From a virus: a stretch of DNA of 64,000 nt. Positions 32,301 to 48,196 of this stretch are shown piece after piece (within the stretch, counting starts at the first letter, position 1; each line of letters begins with the position of its first letter). The position numbers and the translations under genes were made by a program. The notes under the pieces are model-generated. The model made no database searches, had not been told where the DNA came from, and saw only the letters and a program-made list of their open reading frames with translations. The stretch spans positions 27,664 through 91,663 of IMG/VR virus record IMGVR_UViG_3300000115_000007; one strand, 5' to 3'.

Positions 32301-34592
32301 GGTTGGTTAGGAACTGATATTAATGGTCTACAAATTGGTGATCAAACCTCGGCAATTGCTGGCACACAACAAACTAGTACATCGTTTTTCTCTCAAAATA
32401 CAAACGACTGGATAACTTCTGGATTTGATAGAACAACATCAGCCATTGTAAATAGAGTCGTAGCGTCTGAAACAATAAGAACGAGCTTAGGATCTAAAAT
32501 AATTGATATTGCTCTTATTCCCTTTATGAGAAGCCGCCGTGTTTTCTTTGAAGCTGTTGGTATAAGACCAAATGCTCAAATGTTTGCTTACTTAAATGGT
32601 AGAAAAATTAATGACTTTGTAAGATCTGAAAACTTTTCTCGGATTAATAGCGGAAGAGTTGAGTATGAAAGTCCAAACTTATTGACAGCACATCCAGCTG
32701 GTGCAAGTTCCCTTATTTCTTCCGGGGCCGGAACCTTATCTGGGTCATTTTTTATCCCTCATAATAGTACTACTAAGTTTAGATCTGGAAATGCTGAATT
32801 TAAATTGCTTGACGTAACTGAGACCGTCGAAAACGGAGGGGTGCCAGGATCTTCTGCTGTCGCTACATATCAATCCGCCGGCCATATTCAAACATGGCAA
32901 GAAGAAATATTATCGACTAGACACCTTACAGTTGTAGGAACCCGCGTTACCACAGGATCGAGCCGAGTAATAACTAGGAGAGAAGCGAGCGATAGCCGCG
33001 AGTCTCAAAGAAATGATCCATTAGCACAATCATTTTTTATAACTAACCCAGATGGCGTTTACACAACAAAGGTAGATCTCTTCTTTAAAACTAAAGATTC
33101 TACTTTACCAGTATGGATTGAGTTACGGCCGTTAGTGAATGGTTATCCAGCGTCAAATACTATTGTTCCAGGCTCAAGAAAATATTTAACTCCTTCAGCT
33201 GTTAGCATTTCAGATGATGCTAGTATACCAACAACATTTGAATTTGATGAACCAATTTTTCTAAGTGGTAATACTGAATATGCGGTTGTATGTATAACTG
33301 ATAACACTAGTTATAATTTATGGACTTCATTTATGGGTGATTTTGAATTAGGATCGACATCGGCAAGAATTACAAAACAACCTTTCCTAGGATCTTTCTT
33401 TAAATCTCAGAATGGTACAACATGGGAAGCGTCTCAAGAACAAGATATGAAATTTGTTTTGTACAGAGCAGTGTTTTCTTCGTTAACGGGTGAAGTTTAT
33501 CTTAAAAATGCAGATCTGCCTTTAGCTCATTTATCGGCTAATCCTATTGTTACAACTGCCGGATCAGCATCCGTAAGAGTTATGCATAAAAATCATAACT
33601 TATTTGTCGGTGATAAAGTTACTCTTGCTGGAGCTGGCACATCAGCAATTGGGACAATCACACAGTCGCAAATTAATACAACACATACTATTACGCATAT
33701 TGATCCAACTGGGTATAAATTTACATGTGCTGGAGTAACAGCCGGTAATGTTACTGCCGCTAAAGGCGGTGATGGAGCAATGACTGCAACTAAAAACATT
33801 CAGGGTAATACTGTTCATCCTATTGTTCAAACATTAGCTCCTTCAAATACTTCAATAACGGCATCTGGGAAATTCTATAGCGGATATTCGTCTGTCGCAC
33901 TCGAAACTCCTTATCAAGCTCCGGTTGATCCACAAGGTAACGCATTAGGATATAGCTCAATAGCGCTTAATCAAAAGAATTTCTTTGATAATCCTATTAT
34001 GGTTGCTTCAGCAACAAAAGAAGATGATACTTTAGCAAATGGTGGCTTAGCTGGTATCGATACTGCATCAATAAAAGTAGCCTATACAACTGCAAGCGAT
34101 TTTGTGTCGCCTGTTATTGATTTACAAAGATGTTCTATTGTATTGACAAAAAATGAAATTGATAGACCAATTGGATCGACTACTGCTGGTTATAATGTCG
34201 TATTTGATTATGCAGCAGAAACTACGCCGTTTAGTGGTAGTGCATTATCTAAACATATCACAAAGCCAATAACATTAGTTAATACTGCTGTTGGTTTAAA
34301 ACTACTTCTTGCTGCTAATAGGCCTGCTGGTTCACTTATTGATATTTACTATAAAACCGGAACTGAAGATACTGAATTATCTTCAACAAACTGGACCTTA
34401 GCTTCAATTGATACCCCGGTGTCTATTTCAGATAATCCATCAGTTTATAAAGAGTACAGTTATTTAATTGGTGGGGATACTGGTACTATTGAAGCATTTA
34501 CTACTTTTCAAATAAAAATTGTATTTTATGCAAATAACTCTTCAAAGGTTCCAACAGTTAAAGATTTGAGAGTCATTGCATTAGGTGTATAA
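29355..34592 (+). CDS. large virion structural protein (VrlC/DUF4815-like)
   Basis: RILF.P...LQARELTQ.Q, APGADRF, YTMKDIGKIDKRV, KSGFLVDNF, DPLAQSF, GSFFKSQNGTTW...Q.QDMKF, VKDLRVIAL. Confidence 0.85.
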   Translation: MTTTFSENLMSSTYKDDFSDSAGFKRILFNPRRALQARELTQSQTIIQKDIERFGRNIFKDGAMVNPGGVTINSGIEFIKLDPTDNNTPDSFPNASELEGLTFTGSTSGVTARIIQVVDGVAGDLTNNPPTLYIIYTGSGSITPTTSAIKFTPGETITSGTISYVTQTTNTTGNPAIGTGIRVSIASGDYFTQGFFCNSKSQSLMVSKYSSDYTGVIGFKVVQEIVSASDDDALFDNQGAFPNVAAPGADRFRITLSIIDQANITSLDTFIFVANIVKSQIVEQATGFNQYNKINDMVAQRTAEESGDYLVNPYFMTYDSASSLTLNAVLSPGKAYVNGHRINHPVQTELTVNKALTTNLDVLPAGSVLPNSSIAVEYGSYVIVSAIEGALPLDGNGTKTTYPLVEIHNNTTPSGAGTTIGTCRIRHIDQLGSNYRLFIFDVNVTSSFRNAKTLVFGSDDTHFATLVLESSVAVLKEASENNLLFPLPVNRPKAITNMSFSAQRKYTGTASGAGSIVFTSPAAGETFSNANDWVVMSNGVKLADSAWGISAGGVATQSVTISGSGISAGHAVEAIVYIQQSAVIRTKTITPVTSTIAIDGSTFIAPLGKNDIIEMVTIREGTSGGDDVSDQFTFDNGQRDAFYGQGQLIRKSTSSLTGNLYVEFTHYSHSSGNCFAVNSYPAPYGSIPSHRLRDGSIIELRDVLDFRSAKKADGTFDDAGGAAGGVLSELPQNDTIIIAKVEHFLPRQDRIVVGEDGVIKNLEGVSSILPKLPYLPPKHLELYRASLNGGTTSISDMTVQYMENKGYTMKDIGKIDKRVDLLEETVALSLLELDTNQLEVLDDNGNNRTKSGFLVDNFKDQFHSDTSNDEYKASINPKTMTLHPAFTEANVGMIYDDAASTNTVLKGDNVYLAHTHSAYISQSKVSRTENVNPFMISSYTGSITLSPQSDEWKVDRQAAAKIIDGGTRLNTNQAQLHDQSEWGWLGTDINGLQIGDQTSAIAGTQQTSTSFFSQNTNDWITSGFDRTTSAIVNRVVASETIRTSLGSKIIDIALIPFMRSRRVFFEAVGIRPNAQMFAYLNGRKINDFVRSENFSRINSGRVEYESPNLLTAHPAGASSLISSGAGTLSGSFFIPHNSTTKFRSGNAEFKLLDVTETVENGGVPGSSAVATYQSAGHIQTWQEEILSTRHLTVVGTRVTTGSSRVITRREASDSRESQRNDPLAQSFFITNPDGVYTTKVDLFFKTKDSTLPVWIELRPLVNGYPASNTIVPGSRKYLTPSAVSISDDASIPTTFEFDEPIFLSGNTEYAVVCITDNTSYNLWTSFMGDFELGSTSARITKQPFLGSFFKSQNGTTWEASQEQDMKFVLYRAVFSSLTGEVYLKNADLPLAHLSANPIVTTAGSASVRVMHKNHNLFVGDKVTLAGAGTSAIGTITQSQINTTHTITHIDPTGYKFTCAGVTAGNVTAAKGGDGAMTATKNIQGNTVHPIVQTLAPSNTSITASGKFYSGYSSVALETPYQAPVDPQGNALGYSSIALNQKNFFDNPIMVASATKEDDTLANGGLAGIDTASIKVAYTTASDFVSPVIDLQRCSIVLTKNEIDRPIGSTTAGYNVVFDYAAETTPFSGSALSKHITKPITLVNTAVGLKLLLAANRPAGSLIDIYYKTGTEDTELSSTNWTLASIDTPVSISDNPSVYKEYSYLIGGDTGTIEAFTTFQIKIVFYANNSSKVPTVKDLRVIALGV

Positions 34593-34593
34593 C

Positions 34594-34818
34594 ATGAAAA
34601 GACAATATATACAAATCGAAGGTCAATCGGCATTAGTAAAAGACATTAGTTCGGGGGCTATTTTAAACGTCAACAACGAGTCTATAAATAAGGCTAGAAA
34701 TAGAAAAATTAGAGAAGCTGAAAAAGAAAAAGAACTTGTTGAATTAAAAAATGACGTAAGCGAGATAAAAAAAATGTTATCAGCATTAACAAAGAAAATG
34801 GTAGATCAAAATGGCTAG
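34594..34818 (+). CDS. conserved small protein following VrlC-like gene
   Basis: LVKD..SGAILN ... LKNDVSEIK.ML coiled-coil; contains TATAAATA at 34683-34690. Confidence 0.72.
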   Translation: MKRQYIQIEGQSALVKDISSGAILNVNNESINKARNRKIREAEKEKELVELKNDVSEIKKMLSALTKKMVDQNG

Positions 34819-36256
34819 ACAAGTATACGTAGGTTTAAGTGACACGATTAATACTTTTAGAGTGAAAACTAATAATATTGCTGCTCAAATTGGAGATTTA
34901 GATAATCTTAGCACTGAATATGCTGGTCACGATTCAGACATAGTACAAGCTTTAAATTTTAGTAAAGATGTACGTCGTGCTTACACCGCATCAAACGGTA
35001 TTAAAAAAGTCAGCCTTAGCGGAATTATTACTGGTGACTCAAGCGGGACATTTTCGGTATCGGCAGGACACGGTCTTACTCAACTTGATAGTGGACTTGA
35101 GTTAACAGATATGGCAGGAAACACTGTTAAAGTACGAGATGCTGCCACTACCGGTAGATCAACGGATAAAGTAGTTACTAACGAGCAAATTTTAATCGGT
35201 GATGGAACTGGTTTCACATCTGCTCCTTTATCTCAAGATGTTCTTATGACAAATGCTGGTGTTGTAACAATTCAACCTGACGTTGTGACTAATACTAAGC
35301 TAGCTAATATGCCAGCAGTAACGATGAAAGTAAATGCAACAGGTTCAGTCGCTGATCCACAAGATTTGGCACTTGGAAATCATACTATTGTTGGTAGATT
35401 AGGTACAGGTGATATTAGTACGTTAACAGTTGGTACAAGCACAGTAATTGGTCGTACAACATCTGGTGATATCATAGCAGCTCAGGCCGCAACAGATCAA
35501 ATAGCTGATGATGCTGTGACTAATGCTAAGCTTGCTAATATGCCAGCAAATTCAGTAAAAGTTGGAAATAGTTCTTCAGCAGCAGATCCTTCAGATATCA
35601 CAGTAGCAGACACTCAAATTCTAATTGGTGATGGTGATGGATTTACCGCTGCAGCATTATCTGGTCATGTTACTATGACAAATGCTGGTGCGTGTACGGT
35701 TTCTGGAGGCGAAGCCGATTTTGTAAAAGTTGATGAAAAAAATGACGATGTAAATTACCAAGTATTATTTAGCGATAATAATGGCTCAGGTTATCAAAGA
35801 CCTTATATTGATACTGATGATGGACATATGATGTACAATCCATCATCACAAACATTATCTGCCGGTACACTTGCTGGTAATGCTGCAACTGCAAACTTTG
35901 CGGATTTAGCTGAGAAATATACTACAAGTGAAGAGCATCCGGTTGGAACAGTGATGATGGCATCATATAATAAAACTGAAGAAACTACTCCTTGCACATC
36001 AAGCGGAATTCCAGTAGGCGTAGTTTCAGCTCAACCTGCTTATTTAATGAATGCAGATGCGCCAGGCCAAGCTTTAGGTCTTAAGGGAAGAGTTCCAGTA
36101 AGGGTTGTTGGCGGGGTTCATAAAGGTGATCCAGTGTATACGCATCATAATGGCTGTGCAAGTAAAGAATTTAATGGAGCTATGATGGTAGGTGTAGCTT
36201 TAGAATCGTCTACTGTAGATGAAGAAAAATTGATAGAATGTGTCCTTAAAGTGTAA
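34811..36256 (+). CDS. tail fibre-like protein with C-terminal autocleaving chaperone (peptidase G2-like) domain
   Basis: SDTINTFRVKTN N-terminus, VTNxKLANMPA repeats, ADLAEKY...GVVS.QPAYLMN...LKGRVPVRV.G...KGD. Confidence 0.75.
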   Translation: MARQVYVGLSDTINTFRVKTNNIAAQIGDLDNLSTEYAGHDSDIVQALNFSKDVRRAYTASNGIKKVSLSGIITGDSSGTFSVSAGHGLTQLDSGLELTDMAGNTVKVRDAATTGRSTDKVVTNEQILIGDGTGFTSAPLSQDVLMTNAGVVTIQPDVVTNTKLANMPAVTMKVNATGSVADPQDLALGNHTIVGRLGTGDISTLTVGTSTVIGRTTSGDIIAAQAATDQIADDAVTNAKLANMPANSVKVGNSSSAADPSDITVADTQILIGDGDGFTAAALSGHVTMTNAGACTVSGGEADFVKVDEKNDDVNYQVLFSDNNGSGYQRPYIDTDDGHMMYNPSSQTLSAGTLAGNAATANFADLAEKYTTSEEHPVGTVMMASYNKTEETTPCTSSGIPVGVVSAQPAYLMNADAPGQALGLKGRVPVRVVGGVHKGDPVYTHHNGCASKEFNGAMMVGVALESSTVDEEKLIECVLKV

Positions 36257-36263
36257 ATAACTG

Positions 36264-36292
36264 TTTACATTTAATTAAAAATAGTATATAAT
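36264..36292 (+). promoter_or_regulatory. sigma70-type promoter of the radical SAM/oxygenase cluster (predicted leaderless)
   Basis: TTTACA-N17-TATAAT; ATG at 36299 coincides with expected +1. Confidence 0.72.
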
Positions 36293-36298
36293 TAAATT

Positions 36299-36826
36299 AT
36301 GATTAATAAATCTCAACTCATATCTGCACTTACTGCAAACCATATGTATGAACAAAATATGGTTTATGCTATAGATGAACATGGTCGTGAACAGCTAATT
36401 ACTAGCTTTAGCGATTTTTGTAAAGTGCAAAAACAAAACCATTCTATAAAAATCGAACGTATGGAAAACTTTAATTCAACAATATATGAATATTGTTGGA
36501 AAATAAAAACTGATTGGAAACATGAACAACATGTAACATGTCATTTATTTTTTGCGGGTGCTGGTTCTTATTCTTTTGATATGCATACCGATCCAGATGA
36601 TGTAGTTATATATTGCTGTGAAGGATCTAAGTCTTTAATAATTGATGATAAGCCAGTGACTATTATTCAAGGAGAATATATACATATACCAGCTTATACA
36701 CCTCATCAAGCATTAAATAAAGATGAAGCATTAACTTTAAGCTTTGGTTTAGAAAATTATACAGAGGATAAAATTAATAATGAACTGGCTGATGTATCTC
36801 AAAACAACAGAAACATGTCAGCTTAA
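36299..36826 (+). CDS. JmjC/cupin Fe(II)/2OG oxygenase (ribosomal oxygenase-like)
   Basis: SFDMHTDPDDV...EGSK...IHIPAYTPHQA (HxD...H). Confidence 0.78.
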   Translation: MINKSQLISALTANHMYEQNMVYAIDEHGREQLITSFSDFCKVQKQNHSIKIERMENFNSTIYEYCWKIKTDWKHEQHVTCHLFFAGAGSYSFDMHTDPDDVVIYCCEGSKSLIIDDKPVTIIQGEYIHIPAYTPHQALNKDEALTLSFGLENYTEDKINNELADVSQNNRNMSA

Positions 36827-37799
36827 TTGTGCGCATTGTTTTACAAGCGGAAGAAGCGGTCAAAAGATTTATTGGAATACTGATAAGCTAGTTGACTGGA
36901 TTCATAGATTTAGAAAAGAAAAACCTGCAGCACAAGATTCTATACATATGGAATTTCATGGCGGTGAACCGTTTCTTGTGCCGGTTGGCCAAATGCGAAA
37001 GGTATATGATGCATGTGATGGTTTATGGGATCAAATGTCGTGGGGTGCCACAACTAATTTAGTTTTTAAATTAAAAGATCAGCATATGGATTTTATTAAA
37101 GGTCCTCTTGGAAATAGACTTGGCACATCGTGGGATCGTAAGATTCGATTTGAAAATAAAAACCAATATAATCTTTGGCATAAAAATGTTAAAACACTTT
37201 TGGCAGATGGTGTTACTATTCGTTTGTTTATTAGTCTTACAAAAGATACACTTGCAAAAGATCCTATAGTATTATTAAGATGGTGCCGCCGACTTGGTGT
37301 ACAAGAAGTTTCACTGGAAAGACTAACTAATAATGGTAGTGCCCGAGAAGCATCAGAAATATTTCCAAGCAATAAAGAACTTGATGAATATTTTTTAAAA
37401 ATGCACATGCAAAGTGAAGAGCACGGAGCACGAGATTGGTTTGAAAACGACTTTCTAGAAAATGTATATGCTAAGTTTGAAAAGACTATGACTACGTGTG
37501 GAACATTTTGTAGAGATTGTGAACAAAAACTATTTACTATAAATGGTGATGGAACTATTGCAGGATGTCCAAACAGCGCGCCAGAACAAGCCTTTGGAAG
37601 TTTAGACGATTCAATTGATACATTGTTAAAAAGTCCAAAAAGAATTCGTACTATATTAGAAGAAAAAATGCGTAATCCTAATTGTTTATCTTGCCCTGTA
37701 TCTAGATTTTGTGGCGGTGATTGTCATCAATTAGGATGGGATGGAGATATTTGTGGCGCGCCAAAAAGTTTAATGATGGAACTCGCAAAACATGTATAA
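36780..37799 (+). CDS. radical SAM / SPASM-domain protein
   Basis: CQLNCAHC, FHGGEPFL, C-terminal C..C...GCPN...CLSC....FCGGDC....C. Confidence 0.92.
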   Translation: MNWLMYLKTTETCQLNCAHCFTSGRSGQKIYWNTDKLVDWIHRFRKEKPAAQDSIHMEFHGGEPFLVPVGQMRKVYDACDGLWDQMSWGATTNLVFKLKDQHMDFIKGPLGNRLGTSWDRKIRFENKNQYNLWHKNVKTLLADGVTIRLFISLTKDTLAKDPIVLLRWCRRLGVQEVSLERLTNNGSAREASEIFPSNKELDEYFLKMHMQSEEHGARDWFENDFLENVYAKFEKTMTTCGTFCRDCEQKLFTINGDGTIAGCPNSAPEQAFGSLDDSIDTLLKSPKRIRTILEEKMRNPNCLSCPVSRFCGGDCHQLGWDGDICGAPKSLMMELAKHV

Positions 37800-37802
37800 A
37801 TA
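37795..37802 (+). promoter_or_regulatory. T4-type late promoter inside the cluster
   Basis: TATAAATA ending 26 nt upstream of ATG 37829. Confidence 0.7.
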
Positions 37803-37828
37803 CACCTATATAACGAAAGAGAAATGAA

Positions 37829-38392
37829 ATGGCCACATTAACAAATCCAATCACTGCACAGAATATAATAGATAGATTTGCGGATTTTGCACCGGCGGCT
37901 GCTAATTCTGGTATTGTTTGGGGTACCAACTCAGTTCCGTTTAGTGGATTTTCTACATCATATTTTGGTGGAACGACTGCTGGTCGAAGTATTGGAATTA
38001 CTGGAGCTGATATAAATCAAAATCCAATCACTGCTTCTGTTATTAATACAGCAATTGAAAATGAAACCGCTGCATATAGTCAAATTAGAAATTTAAATGC
38101 AACCCGAACAGTAACAGGTCCTGGTGGTAATACAGGATCATATCCTAATCCTGGACAAATTTTTAATCAAACAGCAAAAGCATATTTAAGTAGTAGTTAT
38201 GCACAAACGCTATCTGCGGCCGGAGTCACTTTAACTGCTGGTACTCAAATTAGTGCATCTGGGCTTGAAGCTAAATTCGCAGACTTACAAACTCGTTTTA
38301 ATAGTCTAGTTTCTAATACTGTTACTGTAAATGTTAATATTTGTCATGCTAGTTGTCATAGCAGTTGCCACGCCGCGAGAGGAAGAAGATGA
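37829..38392 (+). CDS. probable virion protein with C-terminal Cys/His repeat (candidate radical SAM substrate)
   Basis: Ala/Thr/Ser/Gly/Asn-rich; all 3 Cys and 3 His are in terminal CHASCHSSCHAARGRR; own late promoter. Confidence 0.75.
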   Translation: MATLTNPITAQNIIDRFADFAPAAANSGIVWGTNSVPFSGFSTSYFGGTTAGRSIGITGADINQNPITASVINTAIENETAAYSQIRNLNATRTVTGPGGNTGSYPNPGQIFNQTAKAYLSSSYAQTLSAAGVTLTAGTQISASGLEAKFADLQTRFNSLVSNTVTVNVNICHASCHSSCHAARGRR

Positions 38393-39036
38393 AAGTTATT
38401 GATGTTACTGCACCATTTAGTATTGAAGATTTGAAATTGTATTTTGAAGATGATCAAACTTTTTATATGGTTGATTATGAAAATTCGCAATTGCAGGGAA
38501 CAAAACTATTAACATATCTTAGTAATCTGGAATTGCCATGTAATATTGGTTTTACTGATCAGAAAGATTTTGATGATCTTACTAGAGAATATCTTTTAGC
38601 TAATTTTATTATAAGTGTTCCTATTCTTGAAGAAAGAGTAATTAGTTTATTATTGCAGATGAAAGGTATTAGTGAATTAATAGAAAAAGATTTTATTGAT
38701 GATAACGTTGAAATACTTACTACTTGGGCAAAGAAATTAGATTCACTTTCGCTTTACAATCTGTACACTGTTGAATGTGATGAATTAAAAGACTACGTTA
38801 AATCATTTCCAGAAGATGACACGAAAGATTTAACTGGAATAAATTTTGTAAATTTGCTTAAATACGAAAGCTTTTATTTATTTTATGTCAATGTAATTGA
38901 ACATCATAAAACATATTATAAATCATATTTTAATGAGTATATGTTTAAAGGAAATAATTTATTTAGCTATTGGGCAAATGTTAATAACCCAATGTTTTTA
39001 CTAACAAGTTCAATCGCCACAGGAGAACAGTTATGA
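38389..39036 (+). CDS. hypothetical protein of the radical SAM cluster
   Basis: ATGA-coupled start at 38389 (MKVIDVTAPF); acidic, no recognised motif. Confidence 0.75.
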   Translation: MKVIDVTAPFSIEDLKLYFEDDQTFYMVDYENSQLQGTKLLTYLSNLELPCNIGFTDQKDFDDLTREYLLANFIISVPILEERVISLLLQMKGISELIEKDFIDDNVEILTTWAKKLDSLSLYNLYTVECDELKDYVKSFPEDDTKDLTGINFVNLLKYESFYLFYVNVIEHHKTYYKSYFNEYMFKGNNLFSYWANVNNPMFLLTSSIATGEQL

Positions 39037-40181
39037 TACATCTGTTTAAGAAGATTTATGTAACAACAGATAATATCATCGATCTGGGATATGATCGGAT
39101 TGTAGTATCACAAAATCATGGATTAGATGTTTTAGAAGATTTACAAAAAATATCTTCAGGCAAACTTATCTCATATTCATTAGAATGGAGTGGAATACTA
39201 GGATCAAAAGATGTAACATATCCAACCGCAATAGATTTATTTACTAAATTAGCAGATCACTGTGATGCTACAGATAAAAGAGTTATTATATATTGTGATG
39301 ATGATTCATTGCAATTCATAATGTCAACATGGTATAAACATATTCTAAAAACACCAACTAAAGAGTCTGTTAAATCGCTTCTACAAGCTCATGCATTTAA
39401 ATTTAATGTATTCTTTAGAGGTCGTTTTTCTGGTAATGGTGGAAATGTTGGTACTGAAGAAATTTTAAAATTAACAAATTTCGATACTATTTACGATAGC
39501 GTAAAAGCAGGTTCATCTGCCAAACGAAAAACTTTTGTTAAAAAATATATTAACACTATTGGTGTAGAACATTTATTTGCAAATTATTTACATAATAAAT
39601 CTACAAAAGAAGAACTAAAAAGTGTAATAAAAATACTACTAAAAAAAGATCTAGAAAAGTATTTGTATGAGTTAAAAGAAATATTTTTCCAGCATTTCTT
39701 AACTAAAAAAGTCGCGGACAAATTTAATTTAAATGCATCATATAATTTTGATAATATTAGTAATATTTTAGATGATACTAGCGATATTGCTCAAGTTTTT
39801 ATTAAAGATGATATGTGGGTATCAAAATATATGAGTACAGCTTCAAGCAACAATAACGTTTTGTTTGATAATATTTCAGCTTCAGATTTAGTAACAATTA
39901 GAAAATTTACACAAATTATTGCTGATGGTTGGTCTCAATTTAAAGTATATGATGCCGGAAAAAGTGATGTAAATAAATTAGATTTCATCGAATGTATAAC
40001 TGGAGAATTTACTGATACTTTATTAGATAGTCTCATTGAAATGGAATCTACATATGATAATGAATCTGGTTCATTTTTCTCTTTAGAACTGGAAACGGTT
40101 AATCATTATTTGATACATTCTTTATTAGATGCAAATTCTAATGCAGATGCAGCCTTTTTGAGTAGGTATATCACAGTGTAA
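39033..40181 (+). CDS. hypothetical protein of the radical SAM cluster
   Basis: 382-aa coupled ORF, AGGAG SD; VIIYCD motif. Confidence 0.78.
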   Translation: MIHLFKKIYVTTDNIIDLGYDRIVVSQNHGLDVLEDLQKISSGKLISYSLEWSGILGSKDVTYPTAIDLFTKLADHCDATDKRVIIYCDDDSLQFIMSTWYKHILKTPTKESVKSLLQAHAFKFNVFFRGRFSGNGGNVGTEEILKLTNFDTIYDSVKAGSSAKRKTFVKKYINTIGVEHLFANYLHNKSTKEELKSVIKILLKKDLEKYLYELKEIFFQHFLTKKVADKFNLNASYNFDNISNILDDTSDIAQVFIKDDMWVSKYMSTASSNNNVLFDNISASDLVTIRKFTQIIADGWSQFKVYDAGKSDVNKLDFIECITGEFTDTLLDSLIEMESTYDNESGSFFSLELETVNHYLIHSLLDANSNADAAFLSRYITV

Positions 40182-40182
40182 T

Positions 40183-41202
40183 ATGTCTATATATGATATA
40201 TTAGAAAACAAAATAACAACTTATGGTGAGATTGTATGTTGTTTATTTGAGCACTGTAATCTTCAGTGTGTTTTCTGTCCTCAAGATCATAATTCAATAG
40301 AAGGTGCTAACCGTGATTCTATCATGGCAAAAGTTCCTCAAATTGTAGAATGGATTAATAACAATAGAAGAACACAATCCTATAAATTACATTTAATGGG
40401 TGGCGAACTCTTTCAAGATGAATGGATAGATAAAGGTTTCCTAGAAATATATCAGGACTTTATTGATTCTATCATAGTACAAACAGAAGCTGATGTACAT
40501 ATTAATTTTATAACTAATTTATGCTTTACAAAGTCCGATATGGTAATGGATTTTTTAGAACATAATAATTTAACTATTTCTGTAAGTTACGATCCTGCTG
40601 GCAGATTTACTCCAAAAGCACATGATATTTTTGTTTCAAATATTGAAACATATAAAAATAAGATTGAAATGATTTCATTAGTTGCCACAAAACAAAACAT
40701 TGCAAAAATTACAAGAGGTGATAACTTATTCACGTACCTTTATAATACATATCCATGCGACTTTGATTCATTTTTGCCATCAGTAAAAAATTCAAAAAAA
40801 TTAATGCCAAGTGAAAGAACTCTTTTTGAGTTTAATAAACTACTTGTATCTAAATATCCTAAATGTTTAAACGTAGATCATTTCGTTAATCAAAAAATGC
40901 AAAATAAAATGATTTGCACAAGAGGTAATTCTCTTACTGTCATGCCAGATGGATCTATTCCTACTGGATGTTCTGGTGCAGTATTTTTAAAAGAAGCTCA
41001 AACTGAAGAACTTGGTGGACCAAAAATAGTTGAAAACTTTATGACTAAATATAATTGCTTTGAGTGTGAGTATTTTGCTCGATGCCCATTTAGTTGTTTT
41101 ATTAAACAAGATTATAAACACATTGAACAAGACATGGATGAATGTGTCTTTAAAGAGACTTTTAAATATGCAGATAGCCTTTATCAACCCACCGCATGCT
41201 GA
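40183..41202 (+). CDS. radical SAM protein with SPASM/twitch-like C-terminus
   Basis: CNLQCVFC, LMGGELF, ICTRG...TGC...CFECEYFARCPFSC...C. Confidence 0.9.
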   Translation: MSIYDILENKITTYGEIVCCLFEHCNLQCVFCPQDHNSIEGANRDSIMAKVPQIVEWINNNRRTQSYKLHLMGGELFQDEWIDKGFLEIYQDFIDSIIVQTEADVHINFITNLCFTKSDMVMDFLEHNNLTISVSYDPAGRFTPKAHDIFVSNIETYKNKIEMISLVATKQNIAKITRGDNLFTYLYNTYPCDFDSFLPSVKNSKKLMPSERTLFEFNKLLVSKYPKCLNVDHFVNQKMQNKMICTRGNSLTVMPDGSIPTGCSGAVFLKEAQTEELGGPKIVENFMTKYNCFECEYFARCPFSCFIKQDYKHIEQDMDECVFKETFKYADSLYQPTAC

Positions 41203-42838
41203 TTGGTCATTAGCCAATAATATGACTTATTTAATAGCTCAAAGCTATTATAAGCATTTTGGAAAATACAGTGATCAAATAGAATGGTTAGAATCTTCTT
41301 ATAAATGGAATACTTATCAATCGTTTGATGAAGCAATTGAGCAGGTGATATCTGCTGATATAATAATGTTTTCTTCATATGCTTGGAACTATGTCATTTG
41401 TGATGGAATAGCTTCTAAGATAAAACAAAAACATCCTGAAAAATTATTAGTATTGGGTGGGCCGCATATAGGAACTAATGATCCTGAACTATTAGCAAAT
41501 AGAACTCAATATGATTATATATGTCAGCCAACTAAACCAGGTGAAATATTTATGAGAGATCTGATCGATCAATACATTGAAAACAAGCTTGATCCCAAAA
41601 CTATTTCTTGGGAGTTAAGATCCAGTATTGGTGATATTCATAATATTAGTAAAGAAGATTATTCTGTATATGAAGAGCATTCTGAGTATTTAACTAGAGC
41701 CCTCTCATATGCTCAAGAAAATAATATGGAGCCATTTATTATTCTTGAAACAACTCGAGGATGTCCTTATAAATGTGTGTTTTGTGAATGGGGTGGAGGT
41801 ATTAATACTAAAATTTATAAAAAGGATTTGAGTATTGTAAAACGAGACATTGATGCTATGATCAAAGCTGGATATCGAGATGCATATTTAACTGATGCAA
41901 ACTTTGGCGCGTTTGAAGATAGAGACATAGAAATATTTGCATATGCTTGGAATAAAGGATTTAATCTAACTGATATATCGACTATGAAATCAAAAGATTT
42001 AAATAGAAGAAAAAGATTAATTGATAGATGGTTTGAAGTAGTCGGTACAGATCAAAGATCACCTAACTCAAAAGATGGTAACGATATGTGGAAAGAGACT
42101 TCAATGATGTCTATTGTTCCAACTGTATCAATTCAAAGTAGCTCTGATATTGCTATGAAATTAGCAGAAAGAGTTGATTTGAATTCAGAAGATAAGTTAG
42201 AATTAAGTAAATACATTAACAAAAGATGCAGTGAAAATGGTTTTCCTATTCCATCATTAGAATTAATTTTAGCAATGCCAGGATCTACAATAGATGATTT
42301 CTATAAAGAAATGGATTACATATGGAACTTTCAAGCTTTTGGATCGTATCGGCATGACTATATGTTTTTACCTGATTCTAGACTTAATTCTCAAGAATAT
42401 AAAATTAAACATGATATCAGAACAGTAGAAGTATTTACTGATATTGTGGATGAACAAGGGACTGATAGTTGGAGTGAACTATATAAAGATAAAAGATCAT
42501 ATTTTAGAACTATGGCATCATGCTTTTCATTTACAACTGAGGAAATGCATGAGATGTGGTTTATGAATAATGCAGGTAATTACTTACTACAACATTTTTA
42601 TCCAGCGTTTGAAGATGATTTAACACCTCCAGTTTTTGCTAAAGAAGCATATAAAATTATAATAGAGTTAGATAACTGGGATAATATATACTATGAGATC
42701 AGAGATATTTTTAATCCAAATTCACCACCAAAAAGCATAAGACAATTAGGAGATAAATTTAGAACTGAAACTATACATGAATTTTTAGAAAAAAATAAAA
42801 TTATAATTATGTCGGAGGTAAGCAAAATATGTGCATAA
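41168..42838 (+). CDS. cobalamin-binding radical SAM enzyme (class B methyltransferase-like)
   Basis: Start MQIAFINPP at 41168; FSSYAWN...LVLGGPH B12-binding-type domain; ETTRGCPYKCVFCEWG; TDANFG. Confidence 0.85.
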   Translation: MQIAFINPPHADWSLANNMTYLIAQSYYKHFGKYSDQIEWLESSYKWNTYQSFDEAIEQVISADIIMFSSYAWNYVICDGIASKIKQKHPEKLLVLGGPHIGTNDPELLANRTQYDYICQPTKPGEIFMRDLIDQYIENKLDPKTISWELRSSIGDIHNISKEDYSVYEEHSEYLTRALSYAQENNMEPFIILETTRGCPYKCVFCEWGGGINTKIYKKDLSIVKRDIDAMIKAGYRDAYLTDANFGAFEDRDIEIFAYAWNKGFNLTDISTMKSKDLNRRKRLIDRWFEVVGTDQRSPNSKDGNDMWKETSMMSIVPTVSIQSSSDIAMKLAERVDLNSEDKLELSKYINKRCSENGFPIPSLELILAMPGSTIDDFYKEMDYIWNFQAFGSYRHDYMFLPDSRLNSQEYKIKHDIRTVEVFTDIVDEQGTDSWSELYKDKRSYFRTMASCFSFTTEEMHEMWFMNNAGNYLLQHFYPAFEDDLTPPVFAKEAYKIIIELDNWDNIYYEIRDIFNPNSPPKSIRQLGDKFRTETIHEFLEKNKIIIMSEVSKICA

Positions 42839-43335
42839 AAGATATTTACACAAAAGGATATGTTAAATTGCGAGAAGCCGAAGGTCTGACATTAATTGGA
42901 GCAGATAATTTTAAGCTTTTAAACACAGAAGAAAGAGCAAGAGATAATGGTGAACAAGACGTTGAGCCATTACTTGCTACTAAACTTGATATGTTCGGTC
43001 AATACCTATACAATAAATACATTTTACCAGAATGGCCAAAAGCCGTTTTTAATAAGTATTTAATATGGGATGGTGTTGATAAAGATAACCAGGGTTGGCA
43101 TACTGATATGTTTGAAAAATATGATGTGTTTTTCTTATATTATTTAGATGATACATTTGCCGAAACTGGTGGGAATATAGATTTTAAATGGAATAAATCA
43201 GAAACAATTTCATTTCAACCAAAAGCGGGTGATTTATTTATGGTATCTAATATACGTGGATTTTGGCATAAAGCAGGTCAATCTTCAATACAACGAAGGG
43301 TATGTTCATTTGACTTTAATACAAACAATAGTTGA
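42829..43335 (+). CDS. Fe(II)/2OG-dependent oxygenase
   Basis: WHTD, FLYYLDD, GG, PKAGD, FWHK, RRV. Confidence 0.82.
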   Translation: MCIKDIYTKGYVKLREAEGLTLIGADNFKLLNTEERARDNGEQDVEPLLATKLDMFGQYLYNKYILPEWPKAVFNKYLIWDGVDKDNQGWHTDMFEKYDVFFLYYLDDTFAETGGNIDFKWNKSETISFQPKAGDLFMVSNIRGFWHKAGQSSIQRRVCSFDFNTNNS

Positions 43336-43609
43336 TAAAAAAGAAACTCTTTGCAAAGAAAGAGATTTGACAGCAGAACTATATAATCTTTGGATTACTA
43401 AATTGCATGATTTTGAGGATGATGAAAATAAATATGAGCAATATATGAAAATGATTGATAATCTTGAACCATATGCAAATATGTTAAAAGAAGAAATTAG
43501 ACAATGTAATAGAGAAATAATAGAACACTATGGTGTTAAATCAATAAATGAAACACCTTATGCAGTTGAGTGTGTTAATAAACACGGCTATGATAGGCCA
43601 AACGGATGA
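43310..43609 (+). CDS. hypothetical helical protein
   Basis: Probable TTG start at 43310 after GAAGGG; ATGA coupling to next gene. Confidence 0.6.
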   Translation: MTLIQTIVDKKETLCKERDLTAELYNLWITKLHDFEDDENKYEQYMKMIDNLEPYANMLKEEIRQCNREIIEHYGVKSINETPYAVECVNKHGYDRPNG

Positions 43610-44100
43610 ATGTTGGTATTTTAGTTCCAGAGCTATTAATGTCTGGATATAAGATTTTTAATGATAAAGAGATCTTATATTTAATAGGCAATATTCCTCC
43701 TGTTAATTCATGGACTATTAAATCAGACACAAGTGGAACATATACTCCAGATGAAAAAATAAATTTAGAACCAGCCCATGACTATATAAAAGATAATTAC
43801 GTTGATAAGTATTTTAATAATTCGACTAAAGGTTATAATAATATATGGAGTTCAACTGATGTAAATTCTATGTCATGGCATAATGATTTAGTCGAAGGAC
43901 CAAATTTATTTTTTATGTATTATTTAAATGATGTAATAAATGATGGTGAAATATGTTTTAGAATTAATGGTGAAGAAACTGGAAAAATAAAACCTAAAAA
44001 GGGATTACTCTTAATGGGATCTCAAGAATTATACGTTGAACATAAAGTCAATCACACAGATGAAACTCGTGCGGTTTGTAATTTTGGGTTCTATGTGTAA
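43606..44100 (+). CDS. Fe(II)/2OG-dependent oxygenase
   Basis: WHND, FMYYLND, IKPKKG, VEHKV, TRAV. Confidence 0.82.
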   Translation: MNVGILVPELLMSGYKIFNDKEILYLIGNIPPVNSWTIKSDTSGTYTPDEKINLEPAHDYIKDNYVDKYFNNSTKGYNNIWSSTDVNSMSWHNDLVEGPNLFFMYYLNDVINDGEICFRINGEETGKIKPKKGLLLMGSQELYVEHKVNHTDETRAVCNFGFYV

Positions 44101-45134
44101 TGGATCTAATTGTCAAACCAACAGAATTATGTAATTTTAAATGTTCATTTTGTTCATCATCTAAAATTACGTTTGAGGATAATACTGCTACTCTTGATCT
44201 AAATAAGATATTTAAGTTTTTAAAACGTTTTCCAGACACTCAAACAATTATTGTTAATGGTGGTGATCCATTAATGATGAAACCAAATTACTATTGGAAA
44301 ATTATAGAGTATCTTGATAAATATGATCTGCCTGCAACAATATCGCTTACAACAAATTTATATCCATTTCTTATGAAACCAATGAAATGGAAAGAACTTT
44401 TTAACCATCCTCGAATTGGTGTAGCTACATCATTTCAATATGGAGGAGGGAGATTAAAAGGTGATTATAGTGAATTTACAGAAGAAGATTTTTGGAAGTG
44501 TTCAGATGCGATGCTAGAACATGTTGGATACAGACCAGCATTCATAGCCGTAATCGTTGAAGAAAACGAAGATACTCATATTAAGACAGTTGAACTTGCA
44601 AAGAAAATGAATGTAGTCTGTAAAGTAAATTATGCCATGGCATCAGGTTCACAGTCTGCGCCATATCAGTTATCAAAAATATATGAACGTTATATTGAAA
44701 TATGGAAAGCTGGATTAAGCGATTGGGAACATAACACTCAACAGATGATGGTACGACTAAGAGGAGAATCCACTATATGTCCTCAAACAAGAACATGTGA
44801 TTCTGGCATTCGAACACTTCAACCTGAAGGTGACTACTATTCGTGTGGTGCATTTGGCGATGATTTAGATAAGGCTATTGATTTTAATTACGAAATGAGT
44901 GGTGGATTTTCAACACCTCTTGCAACAGATTTAAGTTTAATGAGTTTGAAAAATGCATGTTATACTTGTCCTATGTTTGAAATTTGCAATGGTTGTAAAA
45001 AAACTATTAAAGATTTAAAACAACATAACATGGTAGAAGATCATTGTAAACATATGAAGACATTGGCTTTAGACATTATTAAAGCAAACGATATAAAACT
45101 AGAACCTACGCCTTATATAAGAGAATATGCATGA
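44100..45134 (+). CDS. radical SAM / SPASM-domain protein
   Basis: KPTELCNFKCSFC, NGGDPL, ICP....C...YSC...CYTC....ICNGC....HC. Confidence 0.92.
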   Translation: MDLIVKPTELCNFKCSFCSSSKITFEDNTATLDLNKIFKFLKRFPDTQTIIVNGGDPLMMKPNYYWKIIEYLDKYDLPATISLTTNLYPFLMKPMKWKELFNHPRIGVATSFQYGGGRLKGDYSEFTEEDFWKCSDAMLEHVGYRPAFIAVIVEENEDTHIKTVELAKKMNVVCKVNYAMASGSQSAPYQLSKIYERYIEIWKAGLSDWEHNTQQMMVRLRGESTICPQTRTCDSGIRTLQPEGDYYSCGAFGDDLDKAIDFNYEMSGGFSTPLATDLSLMSLKNACYTCPMFEICNGCKKTIKDLKQHNMVEDHCKHMKTLALDIIKANDIKLEPTPYIREYA

Positions 45135-45664: not shown

Positions 45665-46365
45665 AACTAGATTTCTTAGCCCCATATTATCAGAATATTG
45701 AAAATCCTTCAGAAGAAATTAAAATTAAAATTTCAGAAGAAAGTCCTAAAAGCTATGCTTTGACTCGTGCGCCAAATAGAATGAATTCAGATGGAAGAAT
45801 TAACTGTGAAGGATTATATGAGGATGGTGTTGTTGCTGTATCTGTTAGTCCTATAAATCCTAAATTTAGATCACAGATAGAAGATGGTGTATGGCCTTTT
45901 ATAGAGTGTTTAATTAATAAAAATTATTTTACTATGAGTTGTTGTGAAGGACACGACGATAGAATGGGCGATCATTTTTATATTACATTAGCCTCTCCTT
46001 GTAAGAATGAATTAAAAGTTATAGAAAATGAAGTCGAGCATATTATAGGTTGTAAAGTCACAAAGAAAGATTCAATCGCTAATAATACTATAGTTTGGCA
46101 TGAGGATGGTAATCAATTAAAAACTATAGAGACTAGGATTGTTGTAGATGCTGATGCCGAAGCTGAAGACATAAATAATATGTATTTAAGAAAGTATCCT
46201 CGTTATTATTTTTTAAAAATCGATATGTTTACTAATAAAGATGATATCTATTTTGAATTTAATTTAACCAATCTAAAAAATAGAATAATATATTTAATAT
46301 TCAATAAAAAAAGTTTAGCGGAGTTACTAAATAAATTTAAAAAATTACCTAGGTCTACAAAATGA
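45661..46365 (+). CDS. hypothetical protein (T.SC.GH motif)
   Basis: IEDGVWPFIECLINKNYFTMSCCEGH; weak resemblance to the Tyw3 N-terminus. Confidence 0.65.
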   Translation: MKLDFLAPYYQNIENPSEEIKIKISEESPKSYALTRAPNRMNSDGRINCEGLYEDGVVAVSVSPINPKFRSQIEDGVWPFIECLINKNYFTMSCCEGHDDRMGDHFYITLASPCKNELKVIENEVEHIIGCKVTKKDSIANNTIVWHEDGNQLKTIETRIVVDADAEAEDINNMYLRKYPRYYFLKIDMFTNKDDIYFEFNLTNLKNRIIYLIFNKKSLAELLNKFKKLPRSTK

Positions 46366-47270
46366 TCGTATCGATTAACCCCTCATATTTTTGTAATTTT
46401 AGATGTGATTTTTGTTATCTATCTACTAAACAACTTGGAGATCAAAAACAAATTTCATTTGATAAACTAGATGAGTTGTTATCTCAAGTGCCAGATATAG
46501 AACATGTTGACTTATATGGTGGTGAAGTTGGTGCAATGAAAAAGTCGTATTTTTATGGCATTAAAGATGTTATAAGAAAATATTATTCGGGTGAAATTAG
46601 CATCAATACTAATTATTCTATGATGCATCCAGGATTCTTTGATGATGATGTATATCTTGCTGTCTCATATGATTTTGAAGCAAGAGAAAAGTCTGAACTT
46701 GTATTTCAAAATATGTTAATGAGTACAGTACCTATTGCAGTTTTAGTTTTAGCATCTCCAAAGGTGCTAGAAAAAGATGTATCTGAAATGATTAATATGT
46801 TGAATATGTGTTCGTCAATTATGTCTGTTGAGATTAAACCATATTCAATTAATCAAGCAAATGCTCATAATGTTACACACAAAGACTTTGAAGATTTTGT
46901 TATAAAGTGGCTCAAGTTAAAAGACACTATGAAGTTTGAATTTGTAAATGAAAACAGAATTATAGAATCAATGAAAGGAAGATATAATGCATTTTCGGAT
47001 GATCATATATACATCACTCCTTCTGGCAAATTTGGTGTCTTGGAATTTGATGAAGAGGATAAAGAATTCTTTCTTGAATTGGATTCTTGGGAACAATACA
47101 TTGATTGGACAAACAAAGAAAAAGAAGAAATGATAAGTCCTATATGTGCCTCATGTAAGTATTTTGGAAACTGCTTAACAGAGCATTATCGATATGTCAA
47201 AGATTTAAATAATAGCTGTAACGGATATAGAGGATTATTGGATTGGTATCATGAAAGAATGGCAAGTTAA
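46362..47270 (+). CDS. radical SAM protein with short SPASM-like C-terminus
   Basis: NPSYFCNFRCDFC, LYGGEV, CASCKYFGNCLTEH...SCNG. Confidence 0.9.
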   Translation: MIVSINPSYFCNFRCDFCYLSTKQLGDQKQISFDKLDELLSQVPDIEHVDLYGGEVGAMKKSYFYGIKDVIRKYYSGEISINTNYSMMHPGFFDDDVYLAVSYDFEAREKSELVFQNMLMSTVPIAVLVLASPKVLEKDVSEMINMLNMCSSIMSVEIKPYSINQANAHNVTHKDFEDFVIKWLKLKDTMKFEFVNENRIIESMKGRYNAFSDDHIYITPSGKFGVLEFDEEDKEFFLELDSWEQYIDWTNKEKEEMISPICASCKYFGNCLTEHYRYVKDLNNSCNGYRGLLDWYHERMAS

Positions 47271-47655
47271 ACAAGAAGTTTATCATAGATTAAATAAAAA
47301 TCATACAGATGATTTGAATAAAGTAGAAATAGTTTTTGATGATAATCAAGAGGTTATTATTAAAAATGCTATTCGACACTTTAATGAGAAAGTAGATGAA
47401 TGGTTATATCCAGCCAAGAGTTATGTTGTAGCAATATGTTATGCTTATTGGATTAGTAGAGATTTTAACGAAGATTTTTATGATTTGTTAAATGAACCAA
47501 TGCTTTTAGCTGGTAATGATCCATATTTTAAAACATACGAAAATAGTAAGGAAATATACGATAGTATACTTAACAATATAGATTGGCCATTGATGGTAAT
47601 TCACGGTATGGTTCGGGATATAAAAGGATATTATGATGTTGAAATCGGGTATTAA
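47251..47655 (+). CDS. hypothetical protein of the radical SAM cluster
   Basis: 134 aa, YPAKSYVVAICYA...GNDPYF; overlaps neighbours. Confidence 0.72.
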   Translation: MKEWQVKQEVYHRLNKNHTDDLNKVEIVFDDNQEVIIKNAIRHFNEKVDEWLYPAKSYVVAICYAYWISRDFNEDFYDLLNEPMLLAGNDPYFKTYENSKEIYDSILNNIDWPLMVIHGMVRDIKGYYDVEIGY

Positions 47656-48196
47656 TCAGTGTTGGTCAACACCAATATATAAAACTCAAATTACTTCAGA
47701 CCAATGTGAAGAATTAGTTCAAGAAATTTTACTTAGTACTAATATTATGAAACCACAGGCTGAATACGACAGCGGTACACTTACAGATAAAATTCCATTG
47801 TTAAAAGATTTAGCTATAGAAAAATATACAGAATTTTTTAAAGAAGTATTTAGCATCGACCTAAATGATATGTCTTACGAATTTAGTTCTTGGTTAACAG
47901 GATCTCAAAAAGGATATTCAATGAATATTCATAATCATTCTGGAGCTCAATTTGCTGCAGTATTTTATGTTCTTTCTGACGATATTGATAAAGGTGGAGA
48001 ACTAGTGGCGTACGATCCAAGAGCAAATGCCAACAGAGGTTATTTTGGTAAAACCGCTGAAATGTTTAAACCTATTGAGTACGCACCTAAAACTGGTGAT
48101 GTAATAATTATGCCAGGATATGTTTATCATCTAGTAAAAACATATCACTCTAATCTTAGACTAGCTGTTCCAGTCGATATTTTTTTAAAATCATGA
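47633..48196 (+). CDS. Fe(II)/2OG-dependent oxygenase (TIGR02466-like)
   Basis: HNHSG..FAAVFYV, GGEL..YDPR, PKTGD.IIMPGYVYHLV, RLAV. Confidence 0.85.
   Translation: MMLKSGINQCWSTPIYKTQITSDQCEELVQEILLSTNIMKPQAEYDSGTLTDKIPLLKDLAIEKYTEFFKEVFSIDLNDMSYEFSSWLTGSQKGYSMNIHNHSGAQFAAVFYVLSDDIDKGGELVAYDPRANANRGYFGKTAEMFKPIEYAPKTGDVIIMPGYVYHLVKTYHSNLRLAVPVDIFLKS

Follow-up and report, generated by a model that had tools for sequence, protein, structure and literature searches.

The virus record IMGVR_UViG_3300000115_000007 (IMG/VR) of a marine T4-like phage, of which positions 27,664 to 91,663 were analysed as one stretch of 64,000 nucleotides (hereafter, the window), encodes a protein of 187 amino acids (open reading frame, ORF, 37829-38392) that ends in three Cys-His units and an arginine-rich terminus. 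This terminal segment, called here the tail, is a real and strongly conserved feature, far beyond chance, and it is very likely functional. It is most probably a dedicated substrate of two enzymes encoded immediately upstream, a cupin/JmjC-type oxygenase and a radical S-adenosylmethionine (SAM)/SPASM enzyme that we designate rSAM1, and perhaps of other radical SAM enzymes too. That the tail serves as substrate of these enzymes on a protein of the virion is the account that we consider reasonably probable. Positions given below are those of the window, and features are on the plus strand unless otherwise indicated.

The translated tail protein closed with NVNICHASCHSSCHAARGRR followed by the stop codon, its C-terminal end reading NICHASCHSSCHAARGRR. 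The last 16 residues, CHASCHSSCHAARGRR, were the only place with Cys or His in the protein; they form the candidate modified core (C-HAS-C-HSS-C-HAA-RGRR plus stop, 38342..38392), in which the three Cys and three His lie within 38342-38389 with a period of four residues. Neither Cys nor His was found on inspection of residues 1-171 (the body, 37829..38341). Translation thus bore out the original prediction in claiming a Cys/His-free first part and a four-residue-periodic tail closed by RGRR. The same prediction had described the body as small, polar and fibre-like; the composition agreed with the first two terms (61% A/G/S/T/N/Q, 8% charged residues), but the last one did not hold, as the body was modelled by AlphaFold2 as a globular alpha/beta domain. 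The pattern CH..CH occurred a single time across the six frames of the window, and Cys was very scarce in the structural proteins of the window outside the tail protein. The tail gene starts 29 nt past the stop of the radical SAM/SPASM gene located at 36780-37799, so that its position directly after the first SPASM enzyme, also claimed beforehand, was correct.

Relatives of the tail protein amounted to 292 in a word-indexed search and to 247 cluster representatives in an exhaustive profile scan. All but 3 of the 120 relatives listed (48-98% identity) ended in CHxxCHxxCHxxRxRR-COOH, the exceptions being singletons with one His substituted in each. At lower identities (29-53%), 136 of 150 cluster representatives retained CHxxCHxxCHxxRxRR exactly, and the other 14 were mostly fragments or near forms of the tail, in which one additional residue stood ahead of the Arg or else the middle Cys or the third unit was missing. 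When 92 sequences extending down to 28% identity were aligned, the invariant columns were only C172, H173, C176, H177, C180, H181, R184, R186, and R187, and the near-invariant residues of the body were only I29, P37, G48, G52, and R87. Position 4 of the unit was mostly Ser, and the Ser of the first unit was conserved in at least 90% of cases. Absence of the motif from homologues had been named in advance as a result that would count against the proposal; the motif was found conserved in the three sets of sequences. Among 195 distinct tail DNAs, TGT and TGC, CAT and CAC, and all six Arg codons were in free use; this free variation of synonymous codons indicated selection on the tail peptide. 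The number of units ranged from 2 to 4 across the family, which fits unit-wise reaction sites. Four CHxS units were present in two Bacteriovoracia loci (L159 and L167), and two units in rare phage variants. Rare variants of phages (P0142, P0172, and P0244) were devoid either of the third unit or of the middle Cys (CHSNHSNTCH).

Tail and enzymes were linked in both directions. The tail was located by a DNA-pattern scan in at least 119 loci of IMG/VR, and rSAM1 was encoded directly 5' of 63 of the 67 long-form tail genes (tail protein of at least 170 aa, counted only with enough upstream sequence). In the reverse scan, a tail ORF was found just 3' of rSAM1 in 74 of the 80 best loci; the remaining six ended no more than 300 nt past the enzyme gene, leaving the tail present in 74 of 74 informative loci. 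Short-form tail proteins (124-142 aa) were also detected, usually encoded as a tandem pair right after a fibre gene and with no adjoining enzymes; loci of this kind in IMG/VR include L003, L028, L041, L056, L074, L078, and L079. On short-form contigs an enzyme module (cupin-rSAM1-rSAM3-rSAM4-p134) was placed 10-30 kb away on the same contig: the cupin-rSAM1-rSAM3-rSAM4 module was found elsewhere on four of five such contigs, the fifth being a 22%-complete fragment. One contig of 151 kb carried two enzyme pairs and both tail classes. The cupin-rSAM1 pair recurred in related loci and stayed together even when unlinked from the tail gene.

The association extended to cultured phages. Homologues of rSAM1 with 41-51% identity were found in Atu_ph07, Phosso, RSL2, RSF1, FLC-type phages, SURPRISE13, and pPa_SNUABM_DT01. 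In each of the five cultured-phage records examined (jumbo phages RSL2, Atu_ph07, Phosso, SURPRISE13, and pPa_SNUABM_DT01), which represent unrelated myovirus lineages with bodies not alignable by tblastn, the cupin is followed by rSAM1 and then by a protein that terminates in CHxSCHxSCHxxRxRR, and the same order occurred in marine T4-like contigs. A tblastn search with the tail protein against 50,697 phage records gave no match, and its cultured-phage homologues were reached solely through rSAM1. Among the predicted viral structures of BFVD, the body matched a phage protein of 178 aa (TM 0.80) and also the Atu_ph07 protein A0A2L0UZF9, which indicates that the proteins of cultured phages are true homologues of the tail protein although tblastn misses them.

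The enzymes and the tail were also found together in cellular genomes. When one genome of each prokaryote species was scanned for the tail pattern, 47 loci were obtained, of which 40 contained a genuine in-frame tail ORF. Bdellovibrionota (predatory bacteria) accounted for about 28 of the cellular loci, some on contigs of 1.3-2.8 Mb, and in these loci the same enzymes adjoined the tail gene. Tail and enzyme set formed chromosomal islands of 8-12 kb (e.g., L177, G007:C2:2204000-2223999, and L178, G008:C1:300000-319999) flanked by cellular genes (LspA, a DinG-like helicase, an FGE-sulfatase family protein, Mrp/NUBPL, and SLT); a Peptidase_S74 fibre-chaperone protein bordered one island. A homologue of rSAM1 (38-42% identity) was present in the five genomes tested. 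The tail pattern appeared in 12 of 401 sampled Bdellovibrionota genomes and the reversed control pattern in none. Seven of the 47 cellular hits had no in-frame tail ORF and were discarded as chance hits, as was a low-complexity CH repeat in Actinokineospora (L161). In bins assigned to Marinovum, Rickettsiales, Rhodobacteraceae, and Methanobacteriota (L138, L139, L147, L157, L174, and L176) a phage fibre gene accompanied the whole cassette, and these are probably mis-binned phage contigs.

No informative case of a tail without the enzyme was found among the phage and cellular loci examined, and occurrence of the tail in phages lacking radical SAM genes, another outcome that had been named as contrary to the proposal, was likewise not seen in the linkage scans. 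These gene arrangements support the view that the tail behaves as a target reserved for the radical SAM enzyme encoded beside it. The earlier notion of a peptide core of the kind found in peptides that are ribosomally synthesized and then modified after translation (RiPPs), made for the neighbouring enzyme, gains from the co-occurrence and receives no support on the side of the chemistry.

The location of the family in the virion was evident from the Atu_ph07 homologue, gp170, which was identified in purified virions by 8 unique peptides with 35% coverage (Attai et al. 2018, PMC6102473 Table S5); its listed mass, 31.89 kDa, coincided with that computed for the translated homologue gene. The proteins gp165-169 and gp171-175, enzymes included, were absent from the virion list (PMC6102473 Table S5), among them gp169, homologue of the product of the gene that follows the tail gene. 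In the gel, gp170 was spread over bands 1-9 with a peak in band 1, the top slice (PMC6102473 Table S5). The other proteins peaking in band 1 were of 75-139 kDa, save gp321 (36 kDa) and gp616 (32 kDa, a single peptide) (PMC6102473). This published table hints at a high-mass form of gp170 stable to heat and sodium dodecyl sulfate (SDS).

AlphaFold2 modelling with the family alignment gave a compact alpha/beta domain for the body (predicted local distance difference test, pLDDT, 88; predicted template modelling score, pTM, 0.81). The pLDDT of the tail was around 55, for which reason it is regarded as flexible and exposed in the model. No usable solved relatives of the fold were retrieved, either by Foldseek against the PDB (E > 0.8) or in the VIA wide search (best Z 3.9). 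A profile built with the body only, the tail having been removed, recognised 81 of 93 viral long forms and 5 of 49 short forms; since most short forms were missed, the tail must be carried by at least two body types. In a feature search of a protein atlas, the nearest named cluster was the CXXX-repeat target family (score 0.79), taken as a lead only; in Pfam the tail protein had no match even at E 10, leaving this lead unconfirmed.

Candidate maturase of the tail is rSAM1 (339 aa, 36780..37799). Its residues C13, C17, and C20 form a CxxxCxxC motif (residues 13-20), and eight further C-terminal Cys were invariant in 37 homologues. With 35.6 bits against a cut-off of 27 for the SPASM domain TIGR04085, the enzyme is a member of the radical SAM/SPASM superfamily. 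No RiPP recognition element (RRE) domain was found in rSAM1, the N-terminal region included. The sole full-length solved relative was the anaerobic sulfatase-maturating enzyme anSME (4K36-39, E 4e-8). Scores against DynA (44.9 bits, cut-off 450) and PapB (NF047865; 40.5 bits, cut-off 340) were low; as all enzymes of the cassette score far under the cut-offs of curated families, chemistry is not transferable from these. A predicted complex between the full tail protein and rSAM1, the latter loaded with SAM and three 4Fe-4S clusters, scored 0.01 (mark, 0.32), which speaks neither for nor against binding. The idea that the body acts as a leader found no support, given the lack of an RRE in rSAM1.

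The partner of rSAM1 is the cupin/JmjC-type oxygenase (175 aa, 36299..36826; Pfam Cupin_2 6.5e-8 and JmjC_2 7.8e-7), with an HxD...H metal triad that reads H-T-D...H and is retained in RSL2 and Atu_ph07. Further upstream, a fibre-like protein of 481 aa (34811..36256) combines a DUF5907 repeat (Pfam, 2.6e-6) with a C-terminal domain of the intramolecular chaperone (IMC) type (Peptidase_G2 IMC, 6e-4, sub-threshold), and matches the tail fibre family phrog_19602; its homologue sits 5' of the cassette in most related loci.

On the other side of the tail gene, its stop overlaps the start of the next gene (ATGA, 38389-38392), which suggests coupled translation. This gene encodes a conserved 3' partner of 215 aa (38389..39036; phrog_20767, 5e-54), which was the next gene after the tail gene in 67 of 94 loci. 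Its AlphaFold2 model had a pLDDT of 92; no usable fold relatives of the model were found (best Z 4.7 over 57 residues), and the protein atlas returned no result for it. It is followed in the window, and in many other loci, by a conserved protein of 382 aa, unk382 (39033..40181), without matches in Pfam, NCBIfam, or PHROG. A second radical SAM enzyme, rSAM2 (339 aa, 40183..41202; phrog_1802 1.9e-30), recurs in the cassette, RSL2 and Atu_ph07 included. A B12-binding radical SAM enzyme of the class B type (41060..42838; NCBIfam KedN5 family 3.7e-28 and Pfam B12-binding and Radical_SAM, all sub-threshold) is optional in related loci. Next come two small proteins resembling 2-oxoglutarate (2OG)-Fe(II) oxygenases (42829-43335 and 43606-44100; Pfam 2OG-FeII_Oxy_3 7.9e-5 and 1.7e-3, respectively, both under the cut-off) with an ORF of 126 aa between them. 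The radical SAM/SPASM enzyme rSAM3 (344 aa, 44100..45134) reached 35.9 bits and the radical SAM enzyme rSAM4 (46362-47270) 30.0 bits against the Pfam Radical_SAM cut-off of 29.5, the former also matching phrog_1802 (4.5e-56). A protein of 134 aa, p134 (47251-47655), is a constant follower of rSAM4, in an order kept in phage and Bdellovibrionota loci, and a 2OG-Fe(II) oxygenase of 187 aa (47633..48196; 2OG-FeII_Oxy_5 2.3e-10, 41.2 bits vs. 27) is the last of the cluster. No conserved peptidase was found in the cassette, from Pfam annotation and related loci.

Several signals were located around these genes. A T4-type late-promoter-like TATAAATA (37795..37802) lies 27 nt 5' of the ATG of the tail gene. 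This motif was not enriched in the window (10 seen vs. 13 expected by chance); nine of the ten sites (13836-48986), however, were on the coding strand directly 5' of a gene start, preceding the genes at 13830 (minus strand), 14389, 24396, 27927, 34811, 37829, 48334, and 49029. To judge from the DNA sequence, such placement suggests late promoters of the T4 type, and the description of the tail protein as late-expressed is based on these promoter-like motifs only. At 49029 begins an uninterrupted frame that exceeds 4,990 codons and leaves the window at its end (49029-63998); it presumably encodes a very large protein of the fibre or structural kind. A sigma-70-like site, TTTACA-17-TATAAT (36264..36292), directly 5' of the oxygenase gene, was the top site (11/12) in a scan of 34500-39200 and is a consensus match only. 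Contigs from RNA libraries of two studies covered the tail gene and spanned the junction into the phrog_20767 gene; they were not counted for late or high expression, since contigs give no level and libraries can hold DNA.

Taking these data together, we propose a late, virion-associated protein composed of a compact alpha/beta body and a flexible tail of 16 residues, (Cys-His-x-Ser)x3-Arg-Gly-Arg-Arg, which would be matured chiefly by the RRE-less rSAM1 and its inseparable cupin/JmjC oxygenase, with some contribution from the downstream radical SAM enzymes. If the chemistry is analogous to that of other SPASM enzymes, a hydrogen of a tail residue would be taken by a 5'-deoxyadenosyl radical, and the side chains of Cys, His, or Ser would become locked, most likely in thioether and/or His-centred C-C or C-N rings, with a change of -2 Da for each. 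Analogy with known enzymes leaves several chemistries that may apply: Cys thioethers, triceptide-like His-centred rings, a change like that of the His-Xaa-Ser (HXS) system, or formylglycine formation in the style of anSME. The oxygenase could possibly hydroxylate His or Arg of the tail. Such maturation would yield a rigid terminus that withstands proteases and changes of redox state; the finished protein would become part of the particle, probably together with the fibre whose gene lies just upstream, and would help to grip the envelope of the prey. The tail protein is thus probably an enzyme-finished part of the apparatus gripping the prey cell. Two precedents count in favour of enzymatic maturation of the tail: whole proteins are modified by radical SAM enzymes in the cases of HxsA and CrpA, and the only full-length solved relative of rSAM1, anSME, acts on a Cys inside a protein.

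A number of points weigh against this proposal. The case for a modified tail is an indirect one, and the C-terminal peptide of gp170 is not reported in the published Atu_ph07 data (PMC6102473). The enrichment of gp170 in band 1 could reflect an SDS-stable oligomer instead of covalent links, and high-mass migration is not unique to this protein, as gp321 behaves alike. All the enzymes remain far under the curated cut-offs of characterised families, and a cluster with around ten enzymes has several other possible targets, such as fibres. Besides, an invariant "core" on a variable "scaffold" inverts the situation of most RiPPs, in which the recognition part is the conserved one. Finally, Cys and His are well known to coordinate metals, and conservation would likewise be expected of a metal site without any modification. 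The main rival explanation is an unmodified metal-binding tip in which Cys and His, alone or across an oligomer, would bind Zn, Fe, or Fe-S and staple the protein or a partner in the manner of the His-coordinated ions of T4 fibres, the enzymes having some other target. The invariance of the three Cys and three His, the Cys-poor character of the other structural proteins of the window, and a tail that is flexible in the monomer model, like an unliganded site, would agree with such a tip, and a stable oligomer would account for the high-mass gp170. The near-obligate pairing of the tail with cupin-rSAM1, also with unlinked genes and in Bdellovibrionota, would however be left unexplained, as would the conserved Ser at position 4 of the units and the invariant RxRR end; in addition, no HxH motif is present, and the body lacks the trimeric beta-helix architecture of a fibre. 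We therefore regard the metal-binding tip as unlikely.

Slightly less probable still, in our estimation, is that the tail acts as a docking tag (follower peptide) recruiting the enzymes for action on other residues of the body or on a bound partner, for instance the fibre. In its favour, recognition in RiPP systems is usually the task of the conserved segment, rSAM1 without an RRE would need another handle, and the tail is found on at least two body types. Nevertheless, the five near-invariant residues of the body leave it nearly devoid of conserved candidate sites, Cys, His, and Ser typically serve SPASM enzymes as reacting residues and are not typical of docking, and the 2-4 repeat units are those expected of repeated reaction sites. 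The tail could also be modified and then released as a small molecule or peptide, similarly to mycofactocin and PQQ-type pathways, in which the substrate of the SPASM enzyme is a C-terminal core. The strictly C-terminal position of the invariant core, and the presence of SPASM enzyme, oxygenases, and B12-dependent radical SAM enzyme in one cluster, are in line with a cleaved precursor. We nonetheless judge it very improbable: no peptidase is conserved in the cassette, the body of around 170 aa is folded, the homologue is a component of the virion, and the gene comes after a fibre gene and is preceded by a site resembling a late promoter.

Under the preferred reading, that of a tail matured by the cupin-rSAM1 pair, a further step can be envisaged, albeit tentatively and with more doubt than confidence on our part: the tail could be a peptide cross-linked by radical SAM enzymes and displayed on the attachment apparatus of large myoviruses and Bdellovibrionota. 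If so, RiPP-type chemistry would for the first time be part of a virion, and the tail would act as a rigid warhead or covalent staple binding or anchoring to the Gram-negative envelope. Darobactin and dynobactin, peptides made by SPASM enzymes that grip an outer-membrane protein, offer a comparison for such a warhead. Phage particles are generally thought to be built of unmodified or simply processed proteins, and a virion protein finished by radical SAM enzymes and oxygenases would bring a new layer to the assembly of phages and to their recognition of hosts. Marine phage contigs carrying the cassette number in the hundreds, several cultured jumbo phages of bacteria associated with plants also have it, and predatory bacteria share it; so wide a distribution suggests that Gram-negative cells are attacked by a common means. 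From the enzymological side, the tail provides an invariant candidate substrate of 16 residues for an uncharacterised RRE-less SPASM family, with RSL2, SURPRISE13, and Atu_ph07 as cultivable sources. No description of the tail or cassette was found in the literature, and phage genome papers list the cassette enzymes merely as accessory genes. Up to 12 radical SAM genes in marine T4-like genomes have been noted and left unexplained (PMC5332604); our proposal would explain such numbers, of up to a dozen, in some of these phages.

Comparison with known systems placed the cassette near several of them and within none. A c-type cytochrome haem motif (CxxxCH) was discarded, in view of the lack of an export signal or haem lyase and the presence of a His after every Cys, including the first. 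Metal-stapled tips, with HxH or His clusters within a trimeric shaft of beta structure, are known from phage fibres of T4 (gp37, HxH-Fe; gp12, Zn); the tail protein differs from them in having no HxH, a globular alpha/beta body, and a tail unstructured in the model. It also departs from a strict RiPP, with its short precursor and removed leader, by its 187 aa, the folded body of 171 aa, the virion location of the homologue, and the lack of a conserved peptidase. The C-x3-C-x3-C spacing of sactipeptides and ranthipeptides is present in the tail, with no hit to Pfam target families. A similar likeness exists with the CXXX-repeat target system (maturase TIGR04115, target Pfam PF27846), in which Cys appears every fourth residue; in contrast to it, the tail has only 3-4 units and every Cys is paired with an invariant His, and rSAM1 scored 37.9 bits vs. 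350 for TIGR04115, over residues 8-66 only, falling outside this family as it does outside PapB.

Triceptides are three-residue cyclophanes made by three-residue cyclophane-forming (3-CyFE) radical SAM enzymes, His motifs such as HAA and HTK included (PMC11499958); these enzymes join the aromatic ring to the C-beta of the third residue of aromatic-x-x (PMC11499958). His-x-Ser/Ala occurs in each unit of the tail, three times, and the third unit in the window is H-A-A. Triceptide precursors are, however, short leader-core peptides, unlike the tail protein of 187 aa, and scores of rSAM1 against the 3-CyFE families YhhB, AmcB, FxsB, and GrrM (19-28 bits vs. 310-445) were limited to the N-terminal radical SAM core and far below membership.

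Enzymes acting on whole proteins provided further parallels. Similarly to anSME/AtsB, rSAM1 consists of a radical SAM core plus SPASM, without RRE, in around 340-370 aa, and would target Cys inside a protein; the last unit in the window, C-H-A-A-R, literally fits the anSME motif (C/S)-x-(P/A)-x-R. Differences are the three Cys units, the partner oxygenase, the further radical SAM enzymes, and the absence of a sulfatase domain. The score for the anSME equivalog TIGR03942 (41.3 bits vs. 349.45) was below the cut-off despite the full-length alignment with 4K36-39, and (C/S)-x-(P/A)-x-R was not conserved: in 83 distinct tails position +2 was G in 39, S in 24, N in 8, C in 5, and A in 3, and never Pro, the last-unit Cys and its +4 Arg being invariant. 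Another SPASM enzyme, QhpD, cross-links the gamma subunit of an amine dehydrogenase. In Methanococcus, CrpC (SPASM) installs thioether (ranthionine) cross-links in the protein CrpA (PMC13692751). There, as proposed here, the SPASM enzyme acts on Cys of a neighbouring Cys-bearing protein and not of a small RiPP; CrpC carries an RRE and CrpA is Cys-rich throughout, whereas rSAM1 lacks an RRE and the tail protein has its three Cys confined to one short invariant tail, with no Asp/Glu acceptor.

The HXS antiphage system comprises an effector with His-Xaa-Ser repeats, HxsA, matured by the radical SAM enzymes HxsB and HxsC with HxsD (PMC13128918). It shares with the cassette a whole protein with short H-x-S repeats, two radical SAM enzymes, one of them SPASM, and a small partner (PMC13128918), and the modification of HxsA maps to an S-H-x-S-S unit (PMC13128918). 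The tail has three H-x-S/A units in tandem, as is characteristic of HXS. HxsA is nonetheless a periplasmic, peptidoglycan-binding bacterial defence effector with units devoid of Cys (PMC13128918), whereas the units of the phage tail begin with an invariant Cys and are situated at the extreme C-terminus of a virion protein, closed by RxRR. The tail protein had no NCBIfam hit, and none of the HXS families (TIGR03979, TIGR03978, TIGR03977, and TIGR03976) included members of the cassette: rSAM1 reached 33.8 bits vs. 370 for HxsB, rSAM2 and rSAM3 19 and 27.7 bits, respectively, vs. 267.9 for HxsC, and phrog_20767 and unk382 gave no hit to these families. The system falls outside every family tested and resembles, by analogy, those in which radical SAM enzymes modify whole proteins, such as HxsA, the sulfatases, and CrpA.

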